Virus record (IMG/VR): IMGVR_UViG_3300032007_000073
Span: 8,402 to 72,401 of that record
Origin: a virus
Lineage: Duplodnaviria > Caudoviricetes
DNA: 64,000 bases
Reading direction: 5' to 3' (one strand)
In this document: one piece after another, positions 13,301 through 40,538 of the stretch
How positions within the stretch are numbered: position 1 is the stretch's first letter
Layout: each line of letters begins with the position of its first letter
The notes under the pieces: model-generated
Databases searched by the model: none
Seen by the model: only the letters and a program-made list of their open reading frames with translations
What the model was told of the DNA's origin: nothing
Made by a program: the position numbers and the translations under genes

Positions 13301-14853
13301 AGATTATGGATATGATGGATAAGCTCACAATTCAAGATAAAAAGTTTGGTGATGAATTACAAAAAGCAGTTGCTTCGTTGTATGACGATATTAACAAGGT
13401 GTATTTAAAGATGTACGGGTTGGATATGCCGCAAGCAGAAAATTATTTCCCTTCTTCTGTTGAAAGGATACAAGGTAATATGGATTTGCTTAAAGATAAT
13501 ATAGGGCAAGTATCATCGCCCGGATTTATTAAGGCAAGAGTGCAAAGTAATTTACCGTTAATGAATTTTGGTAATCCGGTAAAGATAGCTTTAGATCATA
13601 TAACGAAAGTAAATCATTTTATTTATATGCAAGAAAAACTTGCAGATTTGAATAAGGTTTATAAAACTACTGTAGTTAAAAGGCATATAACTAATGCTTA
13701 CGGTGATAGAGTATATAAATATATTTTGCAAGTGTTAGATAATGCAAAGTTTTCTACCGTTGCAAGAACTATTGACGGTATAAGCGATATAGGTGATTAT
13801 TTAGTTAACAATTATGTGTTAACTAAAATTGCTGTTAAGCCGAGTATTATGATTAAGCAGTTGTTATCGTGCATAAACTATGCGGAAGATATGAGTAGTG
13901 TAAAATGGTTTGAAGGGTTTTTGAAAGGTGTTACAACTCCGAAAAAAGTTATTGATTTTATGATGAAAAACAGTAAGTATTGCCAAAGCAGATTTGCAAA
14001 AGGCGGACAAACAGAAGCTTTGTTAAAAGCTATGGAAGGCAGTAATGCAACTTTTGCAAAGGTAAAAACTTTTAAGGGTATGCTTAGTTGGATGACAAGA
14101 GTTGGTGATATAGGTGCAATTATATTCGGTGGGTATCCGTATGTTGTGGATCAGATGAGCAAGGGTGTATCTTTGAAAACAGCTATTGAGAATTTTGAGA
14201 GAGCTACGATAAGAAGTCAGCAGGCAAGTTTACCTTCTACATTGAGTAATTTTCAGTATCGTGGTATGAATAGTTGGTTATATAGAGCTATGTTTGCTTT
14301 TGCTAATACTCCGAATCAGTACAGCAGAAAGATTGGTGATACGATGTATATGTATTTTCATGGCGATATAAATAAAAAGCAGGCGGCTAAAAATTTATTG
14401 ATTTACGGTGTGCTAAATTCTTTCTTATATACTTCGTTTACTTCTCTTGCGATTCTTTCCGGGTTGGTTAGCGGTGATTGGGATGATTTAAAAGATGATA
14501 TTATTATGAGTTTGATGCAGTGTAGTAATGTGTTGGCACTGCCGATAATATCGCAAGCTTATAACAGTTTTGTATCTAAAGTGGTTACAGGTGATTTTAC
14601 TCCGGATAAAGAGATACCGTTACTTGATGATATGGTTAAGATTATGAGGACCGCTACGAAAGATGAGCTTGAGTTTAAAGATTGGTTGACGATTATAGAT
14701 GAAGTTTCAAGTTTGGTTTTGGGTGTGCCGGTAAAGACATTGTACAATGAGTTTGTAGGATCTACCAAAGATTTACTTGACGGTGAGTATGGTAAGTTTG
14801 CAGTTAAGTTGTACGGTGCGACAGAAAGCAGGGCTAATAAAATTTTTGATTAA
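7318..14853 (+). CDS. Large internal virion / polyvalent protein (gp16-like position) with two ART-PolyVal-like domains and an HExxH metallopeptidase-like motif
   Basis: 2511 aa. 'KAPNGKDSNL...VRTKAFKNWFGDW...SKIVDENGEPKVCYHGT' (~9480-10200) and 'AYHGTPHRFDTFSTDKIGTGEGAQAHGWGLYFAEN' (~10220); 'STLLHETGH' (HETGH at 11347-11361); C-terminal hydrophobic segments typical of ejectosome proteins. Confidence 0.75.
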   Translation: MNSEEIFNNIKNNTRTTVTKEFDPQEVLKSIGLDRTQDIDKNVADQKVEPQYVDADKPKFVQPERRSYFVAGNANNNEINTTAQRPNEIEYEADVVDDEKKKDNYFGLSKLATNKKDIVKNALKYVVQAPNLIQNAANTIGMFTGKSGEDVIKEGVRGFAGSTVDFASAMTRFFGQNYMYFKGMKDKLIDEAANIGSVLTGGEDFSDDIKQKYTDFYNRIDRQTQEFKDKTERFLQYTGIGKTDKDGFIYDLVGGGASLLYAIGATVVTKSPASAAEVFGAYQYQSLYEEGIEKGFSPIKARSIGVAGGAAEGALELVGLHVLIETLAARKSFAKILKSAATEFIQEASQQGAEEILATTSGMRTESVSEILANVGYAGLIGALIGGGSATVSNTRFVQKMISDSATKELINIGVKDEYAKQMVNNMLDFSVSPQVADELNSMLKDEQSPVTYKNADPRETYKEFGDTVKKALDPQQKRGVELEFLQEKKKKIQEYADALINSGKVANKDEAYRQAENAVSFYDDLVMEAYNQDNIRPAEYYKRFNVNAQSGDIETDERNIDDNNISLDDSFNPIDFDETERAKYEAEIEGYEDWLADEQKRSGIRNNFKTQKNILADMGIGKIRKLDKGNDRYGEYEALSPRIKSSFFTDVPTAMTWDEAEHILQQHNGDSADIFDYFDTIDKSVPVGQEGYLQKGIFNKVLAKEKEDIKQKAVADGTFLKAPNGKDSNLPEQLWLVVRTKAFKNWFGDWLNDPQNASKIVDENGEPKVCYHGTPLSRKQKTKNTGWYTDENGEEHYRRQEAPFNIFRGGAYNGLIFFSTDRAKAKEIANYRSMHIQDDEKGNEQWTEEGYVYDVFLNSKNPLNVANKKVVNEILDSIGNIEAYDFYTNKLTKITKDEAAEILSGNNSWMVAETKQFLDAIKAQGYDALQAKDEGVEYTAVFKPNQIKSINNRGTFDTNNPDIYYQAAYHGTPHRFDTFSTDKIGTGEGAQAHGWGLYFAENKDTSEKYRQALLSKRLGVPLWNSNIEGNIYEIEGKKNLKEISKLLSTEETNEAVLEATEKNNYKPIKDLLKNTIKYLQENINNEDREQIEGIDDKKLLEELQSIDIDNIKITQDKGQTFKVDIPENDVLLDEDKTFEEQPEKVQKALKEIAEKELEKDVQTDFLKGYEYEIKYQEEHPEAKDFNLSAEINNLAKSGKERTIELIKKYNFNEERQVKIDFINSIKNIDDFIISSKPIDFKNYKGEDFTGKEIYDAITFNLKGKDADRKEASLLLNKYGVKGISYNGGIDGRAYVIFDDKAVKVLEKFYQEQQQEQPRGSTTIYDRQYFIDLFSASDKSTLLHETGHVFLSEILYFARSKNASKKVLEIKKKLDEWLGEPEDNGRYSTRQQELFATSAEAFFREGKAPTAKLKTVFERFKKWLSDIYDRIKDDLPKINDDVRELFNTILSRSYDVPDSNIYAGKESAIKEVIKNIQEGRASEVDGITIDDVYNLLNVAYTRKPSKPSKNLKQLLNDKNIYDFNELNKAGADTVLQILKDGGYVKEDATAEAAVELAKAALDGNPVYRLADQWRVAGDIDFARNLRVLEKVIEFSQIDSTLEKILSLQEEGYRNVEQGDVDKVQDEYKRLMSADVKEAKKIVEDIINRLHKKRFIDRAAQKQMINDLKFSATAEEIQESVLNVIEDLQDEIKLVKEQLRNPRKPIVRKDKTVLPPKNATEEEKNNYKKYMRKQINRLLKQALPRKQNQQKFSKFDEQTQRFFTDLEKYNKMTIEQAQGELYQRATSIIDDEGVGLDNYEKMKNMFLSYKANKVNQNTTEFYKQLYDNLMQINVFGRNAKEIEETLKKEQIQKDINDLVVNIEDNKSKNGLTAGVKKQYIKWLGNWWSTINAIAGKKQADKDSLERIEIDIFNKNYETTENLKTKCAAALGLKNATDLDMTVNRYLNEEYTYEELDARSGTSNAVKLNKMQLICCYIWMKNDNLKERIVRAFGNVQIMDMMDKLTIQDKKFGDELQKAVASLYDDINKVYLKMYGLDMPQAENYFPSSVERIQGNMDLLKDNIGQVSSPGFIKARVQSNLPLMNFGNPVKIALDHITKVNHFIYMQEKLADLNKVYKTTVVKRHITNAYGDRVYKYILQVLDNAKFSTVARTIDGISDIGDYLVNNYVLTKIAVKPSIMIKQLLSCINYAEDMSSVKWFEGFLKGVTTPKKVIDFMMKNSKYCQSRFAKGGQTEALLKAMEGSNATFAKVKTFKGMLSWMTRVGDIGAIIFGGYPYVVDQMSKGVSLKTAIENFERATIRSQQASLPSTLSNFQYRGMNSWLYRAMFAFANTPNQYSRKIGDTMYMYFHGDINKKQAAKNLLIYGVLNSFLYTSFTSLAILSGLVSGDWDDLKDDIIMSLMQCSNVLALPIISQAYNSFVSKVVTGDFTPDKEIPLLDDMVKIMRTATKDELEFKDWLTIIDEVSSLVLGVPVKTLYNEFVGSTKDLLDGEYGKFAVKLYGATESRANKIFD

Positions 14854-24437: not shown

Positions 24438-24699
24438 CTTTAGCTCCTATTTTATTTTGTTCTATCGTTTGCATTTCTTCTAAAAACTTTGATTCGTTTC
24501 TTACTTTAGCTATCAAACCATTTGCAAACAATTCGGTTTCTCTTTTTATAATTCTTTCAGCTGCTTGAAAAGCAAACTTAGGATTTATATCTTCCAGACA
24601 CTTAGACCATAAAGCCAATATAGCTTTTTTGTCTCCTTCAAACTTAACTCCTGCAATATTAAATAAAGCTAACAATTTACTTGTCTCTTCTTTTGTCAT
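24403..24699 (-). CDS. Replicative helicase loader/inhibitor (SPP1 G39P-like)
   Basis: MTKEETSKLLALF...LWSKCLEDI...AFQAA.RII...LIAKVR; directly downstream of the initiator. Confidence 0.65.
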   Translation of the reverse strand: MTKEETSKLLALFNIAGVKFEGDKKAILALWSKCLEDINPKFAFQAAERIIKRETELFANGLIAKVRNESKFLEEMQTIEQNKIGAKDDIRRIGRGNK

Positions 24700-25403
24700 T
24701 CTTCCCTCCCCAACTTTAAAAACTCATTAGCAGTATCTTCTTTTTTATTTTTTCTTTCCCAAGTTCTTACGGCAGATTTCCATCTTTTCATTTTTGATTT
24801 ACCCATCATCCAACCTCTTGCATCATTCCAATAGAAAAACTGCTTAGCATCTATGTCTATATTTTCTTCTTTGCAGAATTTTTCTATTTCCTCTATTGTA
24901 GGAGGGATAAATCTTTTTTGTGTCTCTCCTATAATATTTTTATTATTTGTTTTAATATATGTTTTATTATATGGTATAGGTAAGCCCATTTGGGCATTTC
25001 CATTTGCCTCTTTGGTAACTTCCATTTGCCCGTTTGGGCAAATGGATTTGCCTTTTTCTGATTCATCTTCTTTTGTTCCAATTGGTATAATTTTTTTTAA
25101 TTCTTCAGGTTCTTCTACAAAAGAATACCATAAAGTTCTATCGTATTTCTGAGAATTATAATTACCTACTTTTATAATATTTAATTCTTTCATTTTATCA
25201 AGTATTGTTCGTATTTGTTTAATAGAGAAATAAGGAAAAACACTTTGTAAAGAATTTATTGAAAAATAAGTCCAATAACATCCATCTCTAAAGTTTTTGT
25301 TGTGAGATTTGTTTTTTATTATCCAAAATAGAATATGTTTATAAACAATAGAAAGTTCTAATCCATATTTTATTGCTATTTCTATATCAAAAGAATGTTC
25401 CAT
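24696..25403 (-). CDS. Phage replication initiator (replisome organiser)
   Basis: N-terminal winged-HTH-like region, central iteron-encoded 'ICPNGQME...NGNAQMG.PIP', C-terminal 'FIPPTIEEI..FC...IDA.QFF.WN..RGW..G..KMK.WKSAVRTWE'. Confidence 0.8.
   Translation of the reverse strand: MEHSFDIEIAIKYGLELSIVYKHILFWIIKNKSHNKNFRDGCYWTYFSINSLQSVFPYFSIKQIRTILDKMKELNIIKVGNYNSQKYDRTLWYSFVEEPEELKKIIPIGTKEDESEKGKSICPNGQMEVTKEANGNAQMGLPIPYNKTYIKTNNKNIIGETQKRFIPPTIEEIEKFCKEENIDIDAKQFFYWNDARGWMMGKSKMKRWKSAVRTWERKNKKEDTANEFLKLGREE
24985..25052. promoter_or_regulatory. Putative replication origin: iteron cluster inside the initiator gene
   Basis: TTCCATTTGCC at 24998 and 25020; CCCATTTGGGC at 24985; inverted repeat CCATTTGCCC-gttt-GGGCAAATGG at 25022-25045; AT-rich tract adjacent (~24930-24970). 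Confidence 0.6.
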
Positions 25404-26005
25404 TATTTATTCTCCTTATGAATATTGTTATGACAAACTCCACAAACAACTTGTAAATCGTTTAAGTGTAATATTTCATATCCGTGATTTTCATAAGTTT
25501 TGTGATGAGTATGTAATTCTATTTTACTTCCACATATTTCACATTTGTTTTGTTTTATTTTCATATAAGTACTTATAGCTTTCCAATATGGAGTCTTAAG
25601 AAAATCTTGGTATTTCATAAGTTTTATTTTTGTTGCAATCTCTTCTTTGTAAGATGATGTAAGGTTATGTAATATATTAATTCTATTTCCTAATCCTATA
25701 CTTTTATCCCAATTTCTGTTACAATTCAAATATTCATCTATTGATTCAATTTTGTTTATATTTTTTATGTTCCTTTTTATTTTTCTTTTTATTGTTTTTC
25801 CTAATAAAGAATTTTGTATATCTTCTATTCCTTCTTCTTGTACAATAATTTCTGTTCCATTTTTAAGAAACAAAGATGCACAACTATATTCTTCTTCATA
25901 AAAATTAGTTGTTTCAAAATAATCAATACTATCTTTGTTTACAATACAAACACTATCACAACAGTTTTTATCAATAGACAATACTTTTATAAATTTATTT
26001 TCCAT
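25403..26005 (-). CDS. HNH endonuclease (C-terminal) fused to an unknown N-terminal domain
   Basis: 'YQDFLKTPYWK...KCEICGS..ELHTHHKTY...DLQVVCGVCHNNIH'. Confidence 0.8.
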   Translation of the reverse strand: MENKFIKVLSIDKNCCDSVCIVNKDSIDYFETTNFYEEEYSCASLFLKNGTEIIVQEEGIEDIQNSLLGKTIKRKIKRNIKNINKIESIDEYLNCNRNWDKSIGLGNRINILHNLTSSYKEEIATKIKLMKYQDFLKTPYWKAISTYMKIKQNKCEICGSKIELHTHHKTYENHGYEILHLNDLQVVCGVCHNNIHKENK

Positions 26006-26261
26006 TTTGCCTCCTTACTTTCTCTGTCATAGTAATTTCAAAAGTTTTAAATTTACCGAAGAAATGTAGTAATACAAACAAAGCATCTGATATTTTGTTA
26101 AATCCTTCAGAGCCAAACAGGACTCTTTCTACTATAATTTGTTCTGTTAAAAAATATCTGTCTGAGAAAATAAGTTCTTCTTTTACAAAATCGCAAAAAG
26201 TTATCGCATTAAATATATATGTTTTTTCACTTTCAAACATTTTAGTTTCTTTTTTATTCAT
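25995..26261 (-). CDS. Hypothetical protein
   Basis: 88 aa ORF between the MTase and HNH genes. Confidence 0.5.
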   Translation of the reverse strand: MNKKETKMFESEKTYIFNAITFCDFVKEELIFSDRYFLTEQIIVERVLFGSEGFNKISDALFVLLHFFGKFKTFEITMTEKVRRQNGK

Positions 26262-26269
26262 TGTTCCTC

Positions 26270-27001
26270 CTATAACATATCAAAATCGAACTCGCTATTT
26301 TTCTCTATTTGAGCATCCGATATTCTTTGTTTTGATATATTATAATACTCTTCAAAAATTTCTATTCCGTAAAACTTTCTTCCATACTTTATACAACTTA
26401 TTGCCGTAGTTCCTAATCCAGAAAACGGGTCCAAAACGAAGTCTCCTTTGAATGTAAGATTAGCAATTATTATATCGCTTAATTTCTGAGGCATCATCGC
26501 ACCGTGAATTTCCGAATAAGGATTGTTCGAATTAACAAAACATTCAATAACATTTCGAAAACACTTTATCCCTTCACCTGAAGTTTTTATTTGATAGTTC
26601 TTATCTTTTTTAATCAACAAAATGTGTTCGTAATTATTGTTGATTACATTCGGAGTTGCACTCGGTTGTCCGTTTACTTTGTACCAAATCATATCATCGT
26701 GTATTCGGTCTGCATAATGTCCTATTAATCTGTAAACATTTTCTCTATTCTCTTTTATTGCTCCTACATTATAAATTACATACTTTTTACTTACTCTTAA
26801 ACATTCGTCTATAACCTTTATTTGCCAATCTAACCAATCTTTTTTAAGTATCGTTTCGGAATTAATATATTTTTTATGCGAATTATTATCTTTCTTTGCA
26901 TTAAACCCGTACGGCGGCGAAGTAAAAGTTATATCAAATGTATCGTCAGAGATTGTCTTTAAATGATTTAAGCAATCGTCATTGATAATTTGATTCTCCA
27001 T
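26270..27001 (-). CDS. DNA methyltransferase, N4/N6 beta class (SPPY)
   Basis: 'DITFTSPPY' motif IV, 'HGAMMP', 'VLDPFSGLGTTA' motif I. Confidence 0.9.
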   Translation of the reverse strand: MENQIINDDCLNHLKTISDDTFDITFTSPPYGFNAKKDNNSHKKYINSETILKKDWLDWQIKVIDECLRVSKKYVIYNVGAIKENRENVYRLIGHYADRIHDDMIWYKVNGQPSATPNVINNNYEHILLIKKDKNYQIKTSGEGIKCFRNVIECFVNSNNPYSEIHGAMMPQKLSDIIIANLTFKGDFVLDPFSGLGTTAISCIKYGRKFYGIEIFEEYYNISKQRISDAQIEKNSEFDFDML

Positions 27002-27017
27002 AAATCCTCCAAATAAA

Positions 27018-27149
27018 GATAGCGGTGTTGCTTACGGAATTGAAAAGTTCCCACCGCTATCCTTAACTCGCAAATAAAAAGGGGGTAGCCTTTCTTCTTA
27101 TGCGAGATTATATTTAGTTAGTTAATTGATTGTTATTTACCGTAAGCAT
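27018..27149 (-). ncRNA. Candidate structured 5' leader RNA of the SPPY methyltransferase
   Basis: Two hairpins (27067-72/27101-06; 10-bp 27018-27/27052-61) and a 9-nt 5'-end-to-loop complement; see findings. Confidence 0.45.
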
Positions 27150-27155
27150 ATTTTA

Positions 27156-27184
27156 ATTCTACCATATTTGTTAAAACAAATCAA
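27156..27184 (-). promoter_or_regulatory. Sigma70-type promoter TTGATT-N17-TAGAAT with extended TG
   Basis: -35 at 27184-27179, -10 at 27161-27156, TG at 27164-63. Confidence 0.65.
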
Positions 27185-27878
27185 GTATTTTTTTCTCTTG
27201 TTCCATTCTATCGACGGCAATTTTATAAAACTTCTCGTTTTTTTCTATTCCTAAATACTTTCTTTTTAATTGATAACAAGCGACACAAGTTGTTCCACTT
27301 CCAACAAACGGGTCAAGTACCAAATCGCCTTCGTGAGTCGAGTTCTCGATAAGAATCTTTGTAATATCCACAGGTTTTGGTGTAGGATGCCCTAAATCTG
27401 CCTTGTCTTGAGAGTTCTTGTTTCTTATGTAATATGTTGCAGCCGAATAGTTATCCTTCGGTTGACAATAAGCCTCTTTACGAAAATAAAGACAATACTC
27501 TTTGTCGGAATTATACTTGCAATTATGCAAAGGCATCGCATCGGGCTTGAGCCATAGAATAAACTCATAACTTGCTTTTTTGTTGACAAAATAATTTAAG
27601 TATTCAGGAATTTGAAACTTTGACATCCAAATATAGATGTTGATTTTCTTTAATATCCTACAAGCCTCGTCCAACCATTTGATATCTATTCCCTTGTCTA
27701 TCTCTGTCTCTTCAAGTTCTACTCTTGTTTTCATTACTGCTTTGTATAAGTGGCTCTTTGGAGAAGGTTTTTTCTCGGAATAAAGATAAGGAATATCGGT
27801 CATAATGAGGTCGATTGACTTGTCAGGGATTTTCTTCATTAGTTCCAAACTGTCTCCCAACCATATTTGATTTTCCAT
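27171..27878 (-). CDS. DNA methyltransferase, N4/N6 beta class (DIPY variant)
   Basis: 'DLIMTDIPY', 'HPTPKPV', 'VLDPFVGSGTT'; start 27878 overlaps the RusA stop. Confidence 0.88.
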   Translation of the reverse strand: MENQIWLGDSLELMKKIPDKSIDLIMTDIPYLYSEKKPSPKSHLYKAVMKTRVELEETEIDKGIDIKWLDEACRILKKINIYIWMSKFQIPEYLNYFVNKKASYEFILWLKPDAMPLHNCKYNSDKEYCLYFRKEAYCQPKDNYSAATYYIRNKNSQDKADLGHPTPKPVDITKILIENSTHEGDLVLDPFVGSGTTCVACYQLKRKYLGIEKNEKFYKIAVDRMEQEKKILDLF

Positions 27879-28297
27879 TAAATCTCCTTTATTTCTATCA
27901 AACATCTCGGTTCTTCGGAATAAATTTTCCTTGTGTTTAAAACAGCCACTTGGCTATCATCTTCCCAAATACCAACATTATTTATTGCATCCATCACTGC
28001 CTTGCTCAAATTATCTAAATCGGGCTTTTTGATTACATAGTGCAACTCTGCCCTCTTCTTTTTGCTTATACTCTTAGGTATTGGCATACAAAAGATTAGA
28101 TTTAATTCTAAAGCCCCTGAGAGCTTTATTTTTAAGCTATTTTTTAGTTTAAGTGTTTCCGTATATACCAAATGAAACCAATCAGTTTTTGGCGAATATG
28201 TGGTTACAAAAGGTTTTCCACTTTTTAAAGTCCGATGAAACGTTTTCGGTCTTGATTGTGGTTTTGGTATCCCTACTACTGTGTATTTTATTTCCAT
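27878..28297 (-). CDS. rusA: RusA-family Holliday junction resolvase
   Basis: 'KPDLDNLSKAVMDA...WEDDSQV' catalytic motif. Confidence 0.9.
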   Translation of the reverse strand: MEIKYTVVGIPKPQSRPKTFHRTLKSGKPFVTTYSPKTDWFHLVYTETLKLKNSLKIKLSGALELNLIFCMPIPKSISKKKRAELHYVIKKPDLDNLSKAVMDAINNVGIWEDDSQVAVLNTRKIYSEEPRCLIEIKEI

Positions 28298-29650: not shown

Positions 29651-29920
29651 TTACCCCCATTTAAGTTTTTTTATTCTGTCTATTGTTTCACGTGAAACAA
29701 ATCTTTTAAAGTATATGCTTGGTGGTTTTATACCTTTATCGTGTACTAATCTGTGATGCTTGGCACATAGCATAATCCCATTCTCAAGCATATACCTTGT
29801 ATTTTTGTATTTTCTTGTGTTAATCCAATGATGTGCCTCTCCGACTATACTGTTACATCCTGCAAATTGGCACGTTTTATCTCTTTCTTTAATCAATTTA
29901 GACCATTCTGCGTCTGTCAT
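29651..29920 (-). CDS. NinG-like / HNH protein
   Basis: 'WSKLIKERDKTCQ..GC...EAHH...TRY.LENG..LC..HH'. Confidence 0.7.
   Translation of the reverse strand: MTDAEWSKLIKERDKTCQFAGCNSIVGEAHHWINTRKYKNTRYMLENGIMLCAKHHRLVHDKGIKPPSIYFKRFVSRETIDRIKKLKWG
29684..29699. promoter_or_regulatory. parS: parS site, perfect 16/16 (TGTTTCACGTGAAACA)
   Basis: Exact match to the bacterial chromosomal parS palindrome; encodes 'VSRET' in 29651-29920. Confidence 0.8.
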
Positions 29921-30954
29921 AGTATATTAACCTTTTTGCATTTGCCTTGTTCTTTATCCCATTCAACCAACTCTACGGTCATTCCTTTTTGATAATCTTT
30001 TTTATCATAAGTCTTTACCATAGTTCCGTCTGTAAAAGTCAATGTCGATAATGTGTAATCTCTACCCGCATTTGTCTTGCCTGTCTTTTGCATAATATCA
30101 CTTATAACAAAGATATTGTCTGTTATATCTACTTCGGTTGCAGTATCTCCTTTAATCTCTTGTTCTACAACTTGTTCTTGTTGAGCAATAACATCGGCTT
30201 TATTCGGTTGAATTTCTTTTGGCATTTCTTTTGGTTGGTCGTAATCTATATGGACAGGTTCTTGTTGAACATCGAAATTCTTGTTGTCTATATCTTCCAT
30301 TATTGCTATCTTGGGGTCGCCTATAAATAAAGTCTTACATAATCTACGAACAACCGCCTTCTTTGCCATCTCTCCAAACCAATCATTCCATACAAAAGCA
30401 GTTTTTGCCTTACCTTTTATCTTTAATACCTCATCTTTACTCATAGTTTCAATGAATGAATACTCTTTACCTTTATCTGTGTATTGAATATAAGCATAAA
30501 CACCAACCATATCCTTGATATGTGCAAATGGATTAGCAACTTTGTGAGTATATTTTGCCTTACCATCTATTTTTTCTACGGTAAAAACATCTCCCGTATA
30601 AACCAACTCTGCCTTAACTTGTGCCGTAGGATATATTTCCTTAATCCTTGAAATAAATCCCTTAAAACCAATTTGATACTCAATCTTGCTACCATACTTA
30701 ACCACATAAGCGAGTTGCCTTTTATCAACAGGTATCCCAGTATCCAAAGAAGCCTTAAAAGCCTCTCTTATACTCTGCGGGTCTAAATTTGATAATGGTT
30801 GTTTACTTGCATCCAACATCGCTTTTGTTGCATAAGCAAACGAAATCAATTTGCTTTGCAATTCTTGTTGATTTAATCCTGTTGCTTTAATTAAAATAGG
30901 AACTTGCTCTTGTATCGCATTGTTAAAAGTTTGTACTACTAATTCTTGAGCCAT
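29917..30954 (-). CDS. recT: RecT/Red-beta family single-strand annealing protein
   Basis: 'AYVVKYG...YQIGFKGFI', 'VGVYAY', 'W.DWFGEMAKKAVVRRLCK'. Confidence 0.85.
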   Translation of the reverse strand: MAQELVVQTFNNAIQEQVPILIKATGLNQQELQSKLISFAYATKAMLDASKQPLSNLDPQSIREAFKASLDTGIPVDKRQLAYVVKYGSKIEYQIGFKGFISRIKEIYPTAQVKAELVYTGDVFTVEKIDGKAKYTHKVANPFAHIKDMVGVYAYIQYTDKGKEYSFIETMSKDEVLKIKGKAKTAFVWNDWFGEMAKKAVVRRLCKTLFIGDPKIAIMEDIDNKNFDVQQEPVHIDYDQPKEMPKEIQPNKADVIAQQEQVVEQEIKGDTATEVDITDNIFVISDIMQKTGKTNAGRDYTLSTLTFTDGTMVKTYDKKDYQKGMTVELVEWDKEQGKCKKVNIL

Positions 30955-30965
30955 AATGCCCTCCT

Positions 30966-31721
30966 TTAAATATTTTTTATTGACAATGTGTTTTCAAATG
31001 TTAATCTTCCGTTTTTCTTTTTGTAATTATATATATCTGTGAATAATTGCAAATATTCCTCCGATGTAGTACAAAGATATAGTTTTGCTTGATATTTCAT
31101 AACATTATCGATTAAAAAGTCCAAATCAAAATCTTTTATTTTTCTCAAGCATTTAACACATCTTACAATTTTATTTACAATGTTTCTTTTTCCTTTTATT
31201 ATGTAACAAAGCCTCATCATTTTTTGAACAAAATCGACACTCTCTTCAATGTCTTTTTCAAAAACCACTCTTCCTTCTTTAAAAACCTCATTTTTGTATC
31301 CACTTGCATTAAACAAACATTCTATCAATCCGTTTATACTAACACCAGTTTTGTTTTTGATTTCTAATAATCTTTGATAGTTTTTATTGCCTTGAGATGC
31401 CCAATATTGAGCATAATCTTCCAATCCCCATTTTTCTTGATATGTATTATAAATAGGAATGTTTTTTGTGTTATCCTTAAAAACGACATAATGAACAGGT
31501 ATCCCCATTCTCTTACAAGCCTCTAATCTGTGTTGCCCATCGATAATGTTAAATTCCTTATCGACAATTATCGGCTTTGACATTGACATCCCACCAGTCA
31601 ACTCAAAACTCTTCATTAATCTCTCTACGTTTTTGTTTTTTATACTTCTGTTTAATCCCACTCTTTTAAATTTTTCATAATTTTTTGTACTCGTGATAAT
31701 AGTTTTTGTGATTTTTTCCAT
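30966..31721 (-). CDS. ParB/Srx N-terminal-domain protein
   Basis: 'KPIIVDKEFNIIDGQHRLEACK.MGIPV' (GxxR motif). Confidence 0.75.
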   Translation of the reverse strand: MEKITKTIITSTKNYEKFKRVGLNRSIKNKNVERLMKSFELTGGMSMSKPIIVDKEFNIIDGQHRLEACKRMGIPVHYVVFKDNTKNIPIYNTYQEKWGLEDYAQYWASQGNKNYQRLLEIKNKTGVSINGLIECLFNASGYKNEVFKEGRVVFEKDIEESVDFVQKMMRLCYIIKGKRNIVNKIVRCVKCLRKIKDFDLDFLIDNVMKYQAKLYLCTTSEEYLQLFTDIYNYKKKNGRLTFENTLSIKNI

Positions 31722-39279: not shown

Positions 39280-39680
39280 AATATCCTCCTTAGTATTTAT
39301 TTAAAATCCCACTCAGAACCTTAAACAAATCCTAATCGCCACTCTACAAGACCTGAAGCCCAAAATAGCCGAAGGACTTATTCAAATCCCCCGGCTACCA
39401 TAGCAAGAAAATGATAAAAAACTTGCTATACCGTTTTTATACTACCATTTTTGTCTATTATTCTTTCTATCTCATCCATTTTCTACCCCCTTAGTATATA
39501 AATATAAGTGCATATAATAATATACAAGCACAAACAAATATCAAAACAAACAAACCAAACATCATTATCCATAATACACAATAATATATCTTATCCAAAT
39601 TCATATCTACCCCCTTTTAAGTAAATCTTTTAAATTTTTAGCATAATAAACAGCTATAAAATACCGTACAAACAACAAAA

Positions 39681-39710
39681 ACAAGCTAAATTTTTAATTT
39701 TTTAGCTTGT
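39681..39710 (-). terminator. Intrinsic terminator
   Basis: ACAAGCTAAA/TTTAGCTTGT 10-bp stem followed on the minus strand by TTTTGTTGTTT. Confidence 0.65.
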
Positions 39711-39763
39711 CTTTAATATATATACCTATTTTATAAAAAGTCTTTTAAAAGTCAATTATAAAG

Positions 39764-40538
39764 CTATAAATTGATTTTATTGTTTTGTATATTTTCATAT
39801 TTTTGTATTAATTCATACAAGTATTTTTCTAAATAATACTTATACCAATTTATTTTTGAATGTAATTCAACTAAATTATAAACTTTATCAATTTTGTTAA
39901 AATAAATTGTATTATTTTTATTTTGTAAATTAATTATTTTTTTTGCTTTTTTTTGTTGTTTAATTCTGTTTATTATTGATTTTTCAATAATTAATTCTTT
40001 TTTTAATTTGATAAAATCATTTATATTATTTATCATTTTTTTACACTCTCTTTTTTTATTTTTTTAATAACTCTTTAAAAATTGCCTTTGCTATTTGTTT
40101 TTTTTATTTATTTTCTAATTCAATTTTTATTGCTAAATTCAACAATTTTTCATATTGTAAAAAGTTGTTTGTGTTTATTGTTATAATTTTGAAATTGTCG
40201 TTTTTATCTTTTTTGCAAAATAATTGTTGTAATTTTTCAAAATCTGTTTTGTTTTCAAAATTATTTTTATTTAACAAGTAAAAATATTTATTAGCTTTTC
40301 TTTTTTCTACAAAATTAATATTGTTTAATTGTTCCATAACATTCATTAATTTTGTATAATTTTCATTTTTTTTGTCGGTATTTTCATAACATATAACAAC
40401 TCTAATTAAAAAATTAGCTTCATTTATTTTACTTGTATTTGTTTGTATTTCCTTTGCTATTGTTTCAAAATCTGTTAAAATTTCATTAATTTTTATCATT
40501 TTTTTGTACCTCTTTTTTAAAGATTTTAGCAAAGGCAA
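39764..40538 (-). CDS. Two extremely AT-rich hypothetical genes (39764-40036; 40104-~40499/40538)
   Basis: N/K/I/L-rich ORFs in a visibly AT-richer island. Confidence 0.5.

Follow-up and report, generated by a model that had tools for sequence, protein, structure and literature searches.

A predicted pseudoknotted leader RNA at the head of a replication-gene block in related uncultured phages

Phage lambda carries promoter-proximal terminators both ahead of O and P (tR1, with N and nutR) and after the PR′-6S RNA (tR′, with Q). In the guanidine-IV riboswitch (mepA, or GGAM-1), an upstream RNA segment contacts the loop of a Rho-independent terminator hairpin located just before the start codon (PMC7736828). 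In the hbs mRNA of Bacillus subtilis, long-range pairing of the leader governs the access of RNase Y and RNase J1 as well as mRNA stability; a strong Shine-Dalgarno (SD) sequence adjoins the pairing, and a 14-bp duplex between the 5′ and 3′ untranslated regions overlaps the RNase Y site (PMC5737220).

The sequence comparisons presented here indicate that a phage locus encodes a real, conserved pseudoknotted leader RNA of ~135 nt, shared by a few related uncultured phages. Its predicted architecture is unusual: the transcript begins, at a fixed distance from the promoter, with nucleotides that are held in the loop of a terminator-like hairpin next to the ribosome binding site. The RNA is best placed among structured 5′ leaders of the attenuator type, with a narrow distribution and a putative function. 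It is apparently undescribed in the sense that it has no counterpart in Rfam, the 10,006 candidates of the IMG/VR structured-RNA survey (PMC10690425) lying outside the comparison.

Gene context and anatomy of the leader

The window (the whole 64-kb stretch of DNA that was analyzed) is part of a 72.4-kb IMG/VR virus record and carries a leftward early block spanning from 32 kb down to 22 kb. Within this block, a minus-strand gene of the ParB-like/nuclease family (30966–31721; phrog_12305, 2.2e-29) lies just upstream of RecT (29917–30954), and RusA is found at 27878–28297; small HTH and HNH genes and a nucleoside deoxyribosyltransferase-like gene (between RecT and RusA) are also present. Two minus-strand genes of the N6_N4 DNA methylase family (Pfam PF01555), MTase-A (27171–27905; 5.6e-30) and MTase-B (26270–27001; 1.1e-27), share only 30% identity. 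The MTase-A ORF as listed begins nine codons ahead of MENQI, which aligns with the MTase-B N terminus (27878–27905); the true MTase-A start may be an internal ATG, in which case the overlap with RusA would vanish. Downstream of MTase-B, the same strand continues at 24696–26261 (PHROG matches phrog_119 and phrog_11233, 1.9e-33) with an 88–amino acid ORF (25995–26261), an HNH endonuclease-like gene (25403–26005), and a replication-initiator/DnaD-like gene (24696–25403).

The two methyltransferase genes are separated by a 169-nt spacer (27002–27170, minus strand), and no terminator was found between MTase-A and the elements described below. A predicted promoter, TTGATT-N17-TGnTAGAAT, occupies 27156–27194 of the minus strand. 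It comprises an A-tract (27194–27188), the −35 hexamer TTGATT (27184–27179), and the −10 hexamer TAGAAT (27161–27156), with a TG at 27164–27163 inside the 17-nt spacer (“TG yes” in the promoter scan). The promoter sequence places the predicted +1 at A27149. The start site and strand a of the pseudoknot together cover 27140–27149; strand a itself, UGCUUACGG (27148–27140), is the exact 9-nt complement of strand a′, CCGUAAGCA (27037–27029). The linker L1 (27107–27139) is A/U-rich, single-stranded, and unpaired in all folds and contains a conserved AAYAAUCA motif at 27134–27127. In hairpin H1 (27067–27106), an outer stem (27106–27101/27072–27067) encloses an inner stem (27095–27089/27082–27076), and the hexaloop CUACCC (27088–27083) lies within a near-invariant GGYUACCCCC sequence with one C-to-U change across lineages. 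In hairpin H2 (27018–27061), arm b (27061–27052) and arm b′ (27027–27018) form a perfect stem of 10 bp, or 14 bp if one G-U pair is allowed, closed by a 24-nt loop (27051–27028) in which strand a′ of the window lies 1 nt from arm b′. The rest of the leader and the start codon occupy 26999–27017: the 7 nt between the H2 stem and the SD sequence GGAGG (27010–27006) are UUUAUUU (27017–27011), and the start codon of MTase-B is at 27001–26999.

An earlier note, made from the sequence alone, had described this promoter with a +1 near 27149, the 9-nt complementarity between the 5′ end and a hairpin loop, the perfect 10-bp stem 7 nt before GGAGG, and the second hairpin at 27106–27101/27072–27067. All four were recovered on the minus strand, the +1 as a prediction and the second hairpin with an additional inner stem. 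The leader of the window has a minimum free energy (MFE) z-score of −3.2. Among 2000 mononucleotide shuffles of the 149-nt leader, a 5′-anchored perfect complement of at least 9 bp occurred in 0.35% and any complement of at least 9 bp in 4.8%. Compensatory changes in homologs are far stronger support for pairings than such single-sequence statistics.

Elsewhere in the window, a promoter-like TTGACT ... TAAAAT sequence (39700–39790, minus strand) is directly followed by a hairpin, AAGCUAAA/UUUAGCUU, and a U-tract and then by two tiny ORFs for a 37–amino acid hydrophobic peptide and a 17–amino acid peptide, the latter with a homolog in contig L213. This element may be a second promoter-proximal terminator, located at the start of the early region.

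Distribution of the cassette and covariation of the fold

Close homologs of MTase-B (74 to 90% identity) led to contigs L005 to L008, L009, and L010, and scans with DNA patterns brought in two IMG/VR contigs, L058 and L131, and two from metagenomes, L247 and L255; L006 to L008 repeat L005, and the record behind L131 appears to be the source of L247 as well. The whole 169-nt spacer is conserved as a cassette, eight further contigs and the window representing three sequence lineages: the window with L009; L005 with L058, L131, L247, and L255; and L010. Exactly one copy was present in each of three IMG/VR records, including a complete 47.5-kb genome with terminal repeats.

About 160 looser DNA-pattern matches were rejected as chance hits by their GC content, by the missing 5′ strand, or by the covariance model. 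The H2-stem pattern retrieved just unrelated high-GC palindromes from IMG/VR, and scanning of representative prokaryote genomes gave three chance matches and no real copy, so that these genomes yield no host assignment. No relative of the window phage was found among GenBank phages with megablast, blastn, or tblastn with RecT. RecT-based scans of IMG/VR returned only the two known relatives and distant phages devoid of the element, and a sample of 400 Clostridia genomes contained no RecT relative. In Logan/ENA, about 60 clusters of close RecT relatives (51 to 99% identity) were found, one of them named “MAG: Clostridia bacterium”; from this one relative, the host is probably Gram-positive. The structural comparison covers the three independent lineages and leaves out these RecT-relative clusters.

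The gene upstream of the cassette is either a methyltransferase or an HNH gene. The first downstream gene is a methyltransferase in the window, L005, and L010, the replication initiator in L009 and L131, and a 111–amino acid ORF, followed by the initiator, in L058. In L009, the MTase-B homolog precedes the cassette and itself lacks a leader, and among 80 loci with more distant methyltransferase relatives, the element was present in none. The gating of the methyltransferase that the earlier note had proposed therefore finds no basis in these genomes: the association is an accident of gene order, and experiments with SAM or SAH would be misdirected. In every copy, a replication-initiator gene is the first gene of the downstream block or close to it, and, as far as the available sequences go, what stays constant is that the cassette heads the replication block.

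Genes around the cassette have been shuffled between relatives (window 26270–27905; L009:3001–4448; L010:567–2200; L005:2170–3735). In L009, the MTase-B–type gene precedes the cassette; in the window, L005, and L010, it comes after. Genes for HNH endonucleases adjoin the cassette region in L005 (upstream) and in the window (25403–26005). The exchange boundary between relatives falls between the SD sequence and the start codon.

The predicted promoter has the hexamers and the 16- to 18-bp spacing of σ70/σA promoters, and it is conserved among homologs. The A-tract and both hexamers are kept in all lineages, as TTGA(C/A/T), 17 nt, and TAnAAT or TAATAT, with varying sequence between the hexamers. 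Since all four sequence types have the same distance between the −10 hexamer and strand a, transcription is predicted to start 0 to 2 nt before strand a. The A-tract and the −35 hexamer lie within the last MTase-A codons in the window and L009 and are noncoding in L005 and L010 (window 27171–27200). Conserved unpaired elements include GGYUACCCCC at the H1 apex, AAYAAUCA in the linker, an H2-loop tract ending in UUCCGU, and UCUUUA...UGGAGG, which is invariant in every copy whatever gene comes next.

For structural alignment of the copies, a covariance model was built from H1 and H2 only. The pseudoknot was left out, and the alignment is therefore not fitted to it. All nine pairs of the pseudoknot are kept (100% of cells), with two compensatory changes and one U-G pair; L010 has GGCUAAUGG/CCGUUAGCC where the window has UGCUUACGG/CCGUAAGCA. 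The 9-nt complementarity of the earlier note is thus not only exact but retained through compensatory change. All 10 pairs of the H2 stem are likewise kept in all lineages (100% of cells), 4 of them with changes on both sides (arm sequences GAUAGCGGUG, GGUGGCAGAG, and GACGGCGGUG), and the outer stem of H1 has both-side changes in five of six pairs. Over all helices, 96.6% of cells are paired, compared to 43 to 53% in slid controls, and 11 pairs carry double changes. None of 500 shuffles attained the observed pairing values, a statistic that overstates independence since there are three lineages only. The conserved helices contain six G-U cells and no A-C cell, and the structure is therefore that of sense-strand RNA rather than of DNA or antisense RNA. 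Overall, compensatory changes, sense-strand pairing, and a position directly 5′ of the SD sequence and start codon come together in the three lineages, as expected of a structured cis-regulatory leader RNA.

The topology of the fold follows from the spacing of its strands. Strand a′ lies 0 to 1 nt 5′ of b′, so helix a-a′ stacks on the loop end of b-b′. Strands a′ and b′ must then be continuous, with the 5′ terminus of the RNA abutting the 3′ end of b and buried at the nick. Modeled in this way, the stacked helices would form a rod of about 19 to 22 bp, bridged by H1 and the A-rich linker; by a geometric argument, the 7 to 14 nt between b and a′ suffice to cross helix a-a′. The pseudoknot spans ~100 nt. 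Helix a-a′ has an energy of −14 kcal/mol as a duplex and reaches 12 bp in L005 and L010. When the RNA is truncated just before b′, a-a′ is the MFE helix in all four types; the pseudoknot helix should therefore form first during transcription.

Proposed function and alternative explanations

H2 has several features of an intrinsic terminator. Its 10-bp stem is GC-rich (six to seven G-C pairs, −14 to −15 kcal/mol as a hairpin) and is directly followed by UUUAUUU, UUUAUUUU, UUUAAUUU, or UUUAUCU in the four types, as a GC-rich stem with an immediate U-rich tract requires. Its loop of 19 to 24 nt exceeds the about 3 to 8 nt typical of such terminators, and a simple terminator scan did not list H2. 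Nothing in the fold appears to relieve this hairpin. In an exhaustive search, the helices present in all lineages were only a-a′, H1, H2, and weak 4- to 5-bp pairings with the invariant SD sequence, and no conserved SD-sequestering helix was found in any lineage. The best alternative partners of b and b′ reach −5 to −10 kcal/mol, compared to −16 to −17 kcal/mol for b-b′, and none is conserved. The mutually exclusive terminator/antiterminator or sequestering folds expected of a transcriptional riboswitch are thus missing, and with no conserved competing structure, the fold looks static rather than switchable. The earlier note had described a cis-regulatory RNA acting as a switch; what holds is a structured sense-strand RNA upstream of replication genes, whereas the switch, for which neither the stem arms nor the SD sequence has a conserved alternative partner, falls away together with the gating of the methyltransferase and the sensing of SAM or SAH.

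A pT181/pIP501-type, antisense-controlled rep attenuator was also considered and rejected. There is no plus-strand promoter-like site within 27002–27150 from which a countertranscript could arise, which argues against an attenuator of the pT181 type, and the 5′ strand of the leader pairs with the loop rather than with a terminator arm.

The reading that we favor, tentatively, since it could somewhat more easily prove wrong than right, is that the leader acts in cis as a combined attenuator and 5′-end lock on the downstream operon. The spacer would be a portable expression cassette heading the replication-gene block, made up of a strong host-type promoter, a structured leader of ~135 nt, and an SD sequence. 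H2 with UUUAUUU would stop some of the polymerases, coming both from the cassette’s own promoter and from the upstream early operon, before they reach the replication genes. The pseudoknot would form before b′ exists and then lengthen the terminator helix. In a Firmicute host, the buried 5′ end may escape enzymes of 5′-dependent decay such as RNase J or RppH (that the host has RNase J is suggested solely by the one RecT relative mentioned above), while the SD sequence, 7 to 8 nt downstream, would remain open. The fusion of UCUUUA...UGGAGG to the start of whichever gene comes next supports action in cis. The U-rich sequence ahead of the SD sequence could instead be a translation enhancer, as such sequences are common in AT-rich genomes. 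A simple 5′ hairpin would suffice to protect the 5′ end, so that protection leaves the near-invariance of the H1 loop and the conservation of the linker motif unexplained.

A further step, which we consider quite unlikely, would make H2 a composite terminator, a riboregulator of a new kind in which the upper half of the helix is supplied by the transcript’s own 5′ terminus. If this were true, whether a transcript terminates and how long the mRNA survives would be set by its 5′ end, which may be free, capped or processed, occupied by a ribosome, or extended, as in RNA reading through from the upstream operon, and the phage could treat RNAs from the cassette promoter differently from those that arrive from the early promoter.

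The most serious competitor, which we nevertheless consider unlikely, is a stand-alone, trans-acting small RNA (sRNA) of ~135 to 140 nt ending at H2 and the U-tract, with both ends protected. Its exposed, conserved C/U-rich loops (CUACCCCC in H1, UUUCC/UUCC in the H2 loop) would pair with SD regions of phage or host mRNAs, and the replication genes would be expressed by read-through. C-rich sRNAs of Firmicutes do pair with SD regions of mRNAs, and a strong promoter of its own, a terminator-like 3′ end, and a compact static fold are all consistent with such a molecule. Moreover, an SD context that recurs in these phages, AAGGGGGUAG, is exactly complementary to the H1 apex, CUACCCCCUU. However, this complementarity is to a generic SD motif present on both strands and not to particular conserved targets; it therefore identifies no targets, and a specific trans target for the H1 loop was rejected. 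In addition, half of the motif is buried within the H1 stem, no match to RsaE or another Rfam family was obtained at E ≤ 10, and the cassette is always fused to the SD sequence and start of the next gene, with no separate promoter seen for the replication genes.

As to the motif itself, the H1 apex resembles an anti-SD sequence. Sites with AAGGGGGUAG are located at 39614, 39490, 29658, and 23446 on the minus strand and at 14851 and 62501 on the plus strand of the window, and at L213:5711 and L212:3117; on the minus strand of the window, 4 of 18 GGGGG sites have UAG next.

All stems covary, yet unpaired nucleotides of the linker and the H1 loop are near-invariant, as would be expected if the leader were an antitermination site of the nut/boxB or put kind. 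The H1 hexaloop and AAYAAUCA would be recognized by an early phage protein or by RNA polymerase itself, and polymerase would then pass H2, so that expression of the replication genes is timed after the early genes, much as lambda N works at nutR/tR1 upstream of O and P. The promoter-proximal, terminator-like hairpin ahead of the replication block fits this scheme, as does the lack of an RNA-only alternative structure able to relieve termination. On the other hand, the early region yielded no candidate for an antiterminator protein, the scan showed no further downstream minus-strand terminators that call for processive antitermination, and nut and put sites contain nothing comparable to the pseudoknot. 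We therefore regard this mechanism as quite unlikely.

A ligand-sensing riboswitch, in which a ligand stabilizes the pseudoknot against the terminator loop and so changes termination, is less probable still. General hallmarks of riboswitches are present, namely, a terminator-like hairpin ahead of varied, nonhomologous genes, a pseudoknot, and unpaired nucleotides that are conserved, and guanidine-IV sets a precedent for a tertiary contact with a terminator loop that regulates termination without a classical antiterminator (PMC7736828). Yet the downstream genes are those of replication, with no metabolic theme and with the methyltransferase link broken in L009, L058, and L131; helix a-a′ of 9 to 12 bp should form ligand-free; and no alternative expression-platform fold exists. 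The Rfam search proposed in the earlier note, run on the whole 64-kb window at the gathering score and on 26950–27220 at E ≤ 10 with permissive filters, returned nothing relevant and no riboswitch family. For a sensor of SAM or SAH in particular, which that note had suggested, neither a match to the Rfam covariance models SAM-I to SAM-VI, SAM-SAH, and SAH nor a consistent association with SAM-metabolism or SAM-dependent genes was found, and we give it almost no chance of being correct.

The earlier note had also raised a switch coupled to a leaderless upstream ORF, in which a 70S ribosome at the 5′-terminal AUG would occupy strand a and block the pseudoknot, making downstream termination or translation dependent on translation status. 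An 11-codon ORF does open at AUG 27149, the predicted +1 coincides with an AUG in the window, L005-type, and L009 copies, and every lineage has a 10- to 17-codon ORF ending before H1 (with a GUG start in L010). However, such lengths are expected by chance in AU-rich sequence, and the pseudoknot already accounts for two of the AUG nucleotides, U and G. The encoded peptides are unrelated, AAYAAUCA being read in different frames, so a conserved leader peptide was rejected; in L010, the AUG was lost through a compensatory change, leaving only a GUG shifted by 1 nt. The ORF of the note thus exists without being conserved in frame, and the switch built on it is very improbable. Even less credible is a DNA-level operator or replication origin, with inverted repeats and an AT-rich unwinding region: although the element adjoins replication genes and has an AT-rich stretch of 33 to 42 bp between GC-rich inverted repeats, the six G-U and zero A-C cells mean that pairing works only on sense-strand RNA, the pseudoknot arms keep their complementarity by compensatory change rather than as a fixed protein-binding sequence, and the distance from a conserved promoter is fixed.

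Relation to described systems

The leader adds a covariation-supported structured RNA without Rfam counterpart, one that travels as a promoter-leader-SD module. If it is an attenuator or a 5′-end protector, it would show how phages of Gram-positive anaerobes time or boost the expression of their replication genes, and the cassette could become a compact part for expression or insulation.

As in the SAM-II, SAM-V, and SAM-SAH riboswitches, the pseudoknot adjoins the SD sequence, and in the window the downstream gene encodes a SAM-dependent enzyme. However, those aptamers are 45 to 60 nt long, and their 3′ strand sequesters the SD sequence, which the phage leader leaves free. The phage pseudoknot further differs from them in its ~100-nt span, in the lack of an Rfam match, and in its link to replication rather than SAM metabolism.

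Like the exonuclease-resistant RNAs (xrRNAs) of flaviviruses and plant viruses, the leader is a viral RNA fold whose 5′ end is held by a pseudoknot (PMC5760640). In xrRNAs, a three-way junction or a small hairpin gives rise to a ring that encircles the 5′ end, whereas the phage leader shares the topology of a 5′-end pseudoknot only, from which a ring is not inferable. The xrRNAs act on decay intermediates of long RNAs and not, as the phage leader would, at the start of transcription. Flaviviral xrRNAs reportedly also stop bacterial RNase J1, and a composite terminator might serve as a bacterial counterpart of these viral RNAs.

As in lambda, a terminator would stand between an early promoter and replication or later genes, giving timed or attenuated expression, and lambda too yields a short terminated leader RNA. 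In contrast to lambda, no N- or Q-like protein and no boxA or boxB was found, and the host is probably Gram-positive; lambda leaders, for their part, have no 5′-end pseudoknot. Unlike in hbs, the pairing stays inside a single leader of 135 nt, with the terminal nucleotides themselves taking part in it, and stabilization of the phage mRNA is only putative. With guanidine-IV, the phage leader shares a conserved upstream segment that base-pairs with the loop of a terminator-like hairpin. It has no sequence or covariance-model similarity to that riboswitch and stands upstream of phage replication genes. In guanidine-IV, the loops of two hairpins make a short contact that depends on the ligand, whereas the extreme 5′ end of the phage leader would form a helix of 9 to 12 bp that is predicted to be stable without a ligand.
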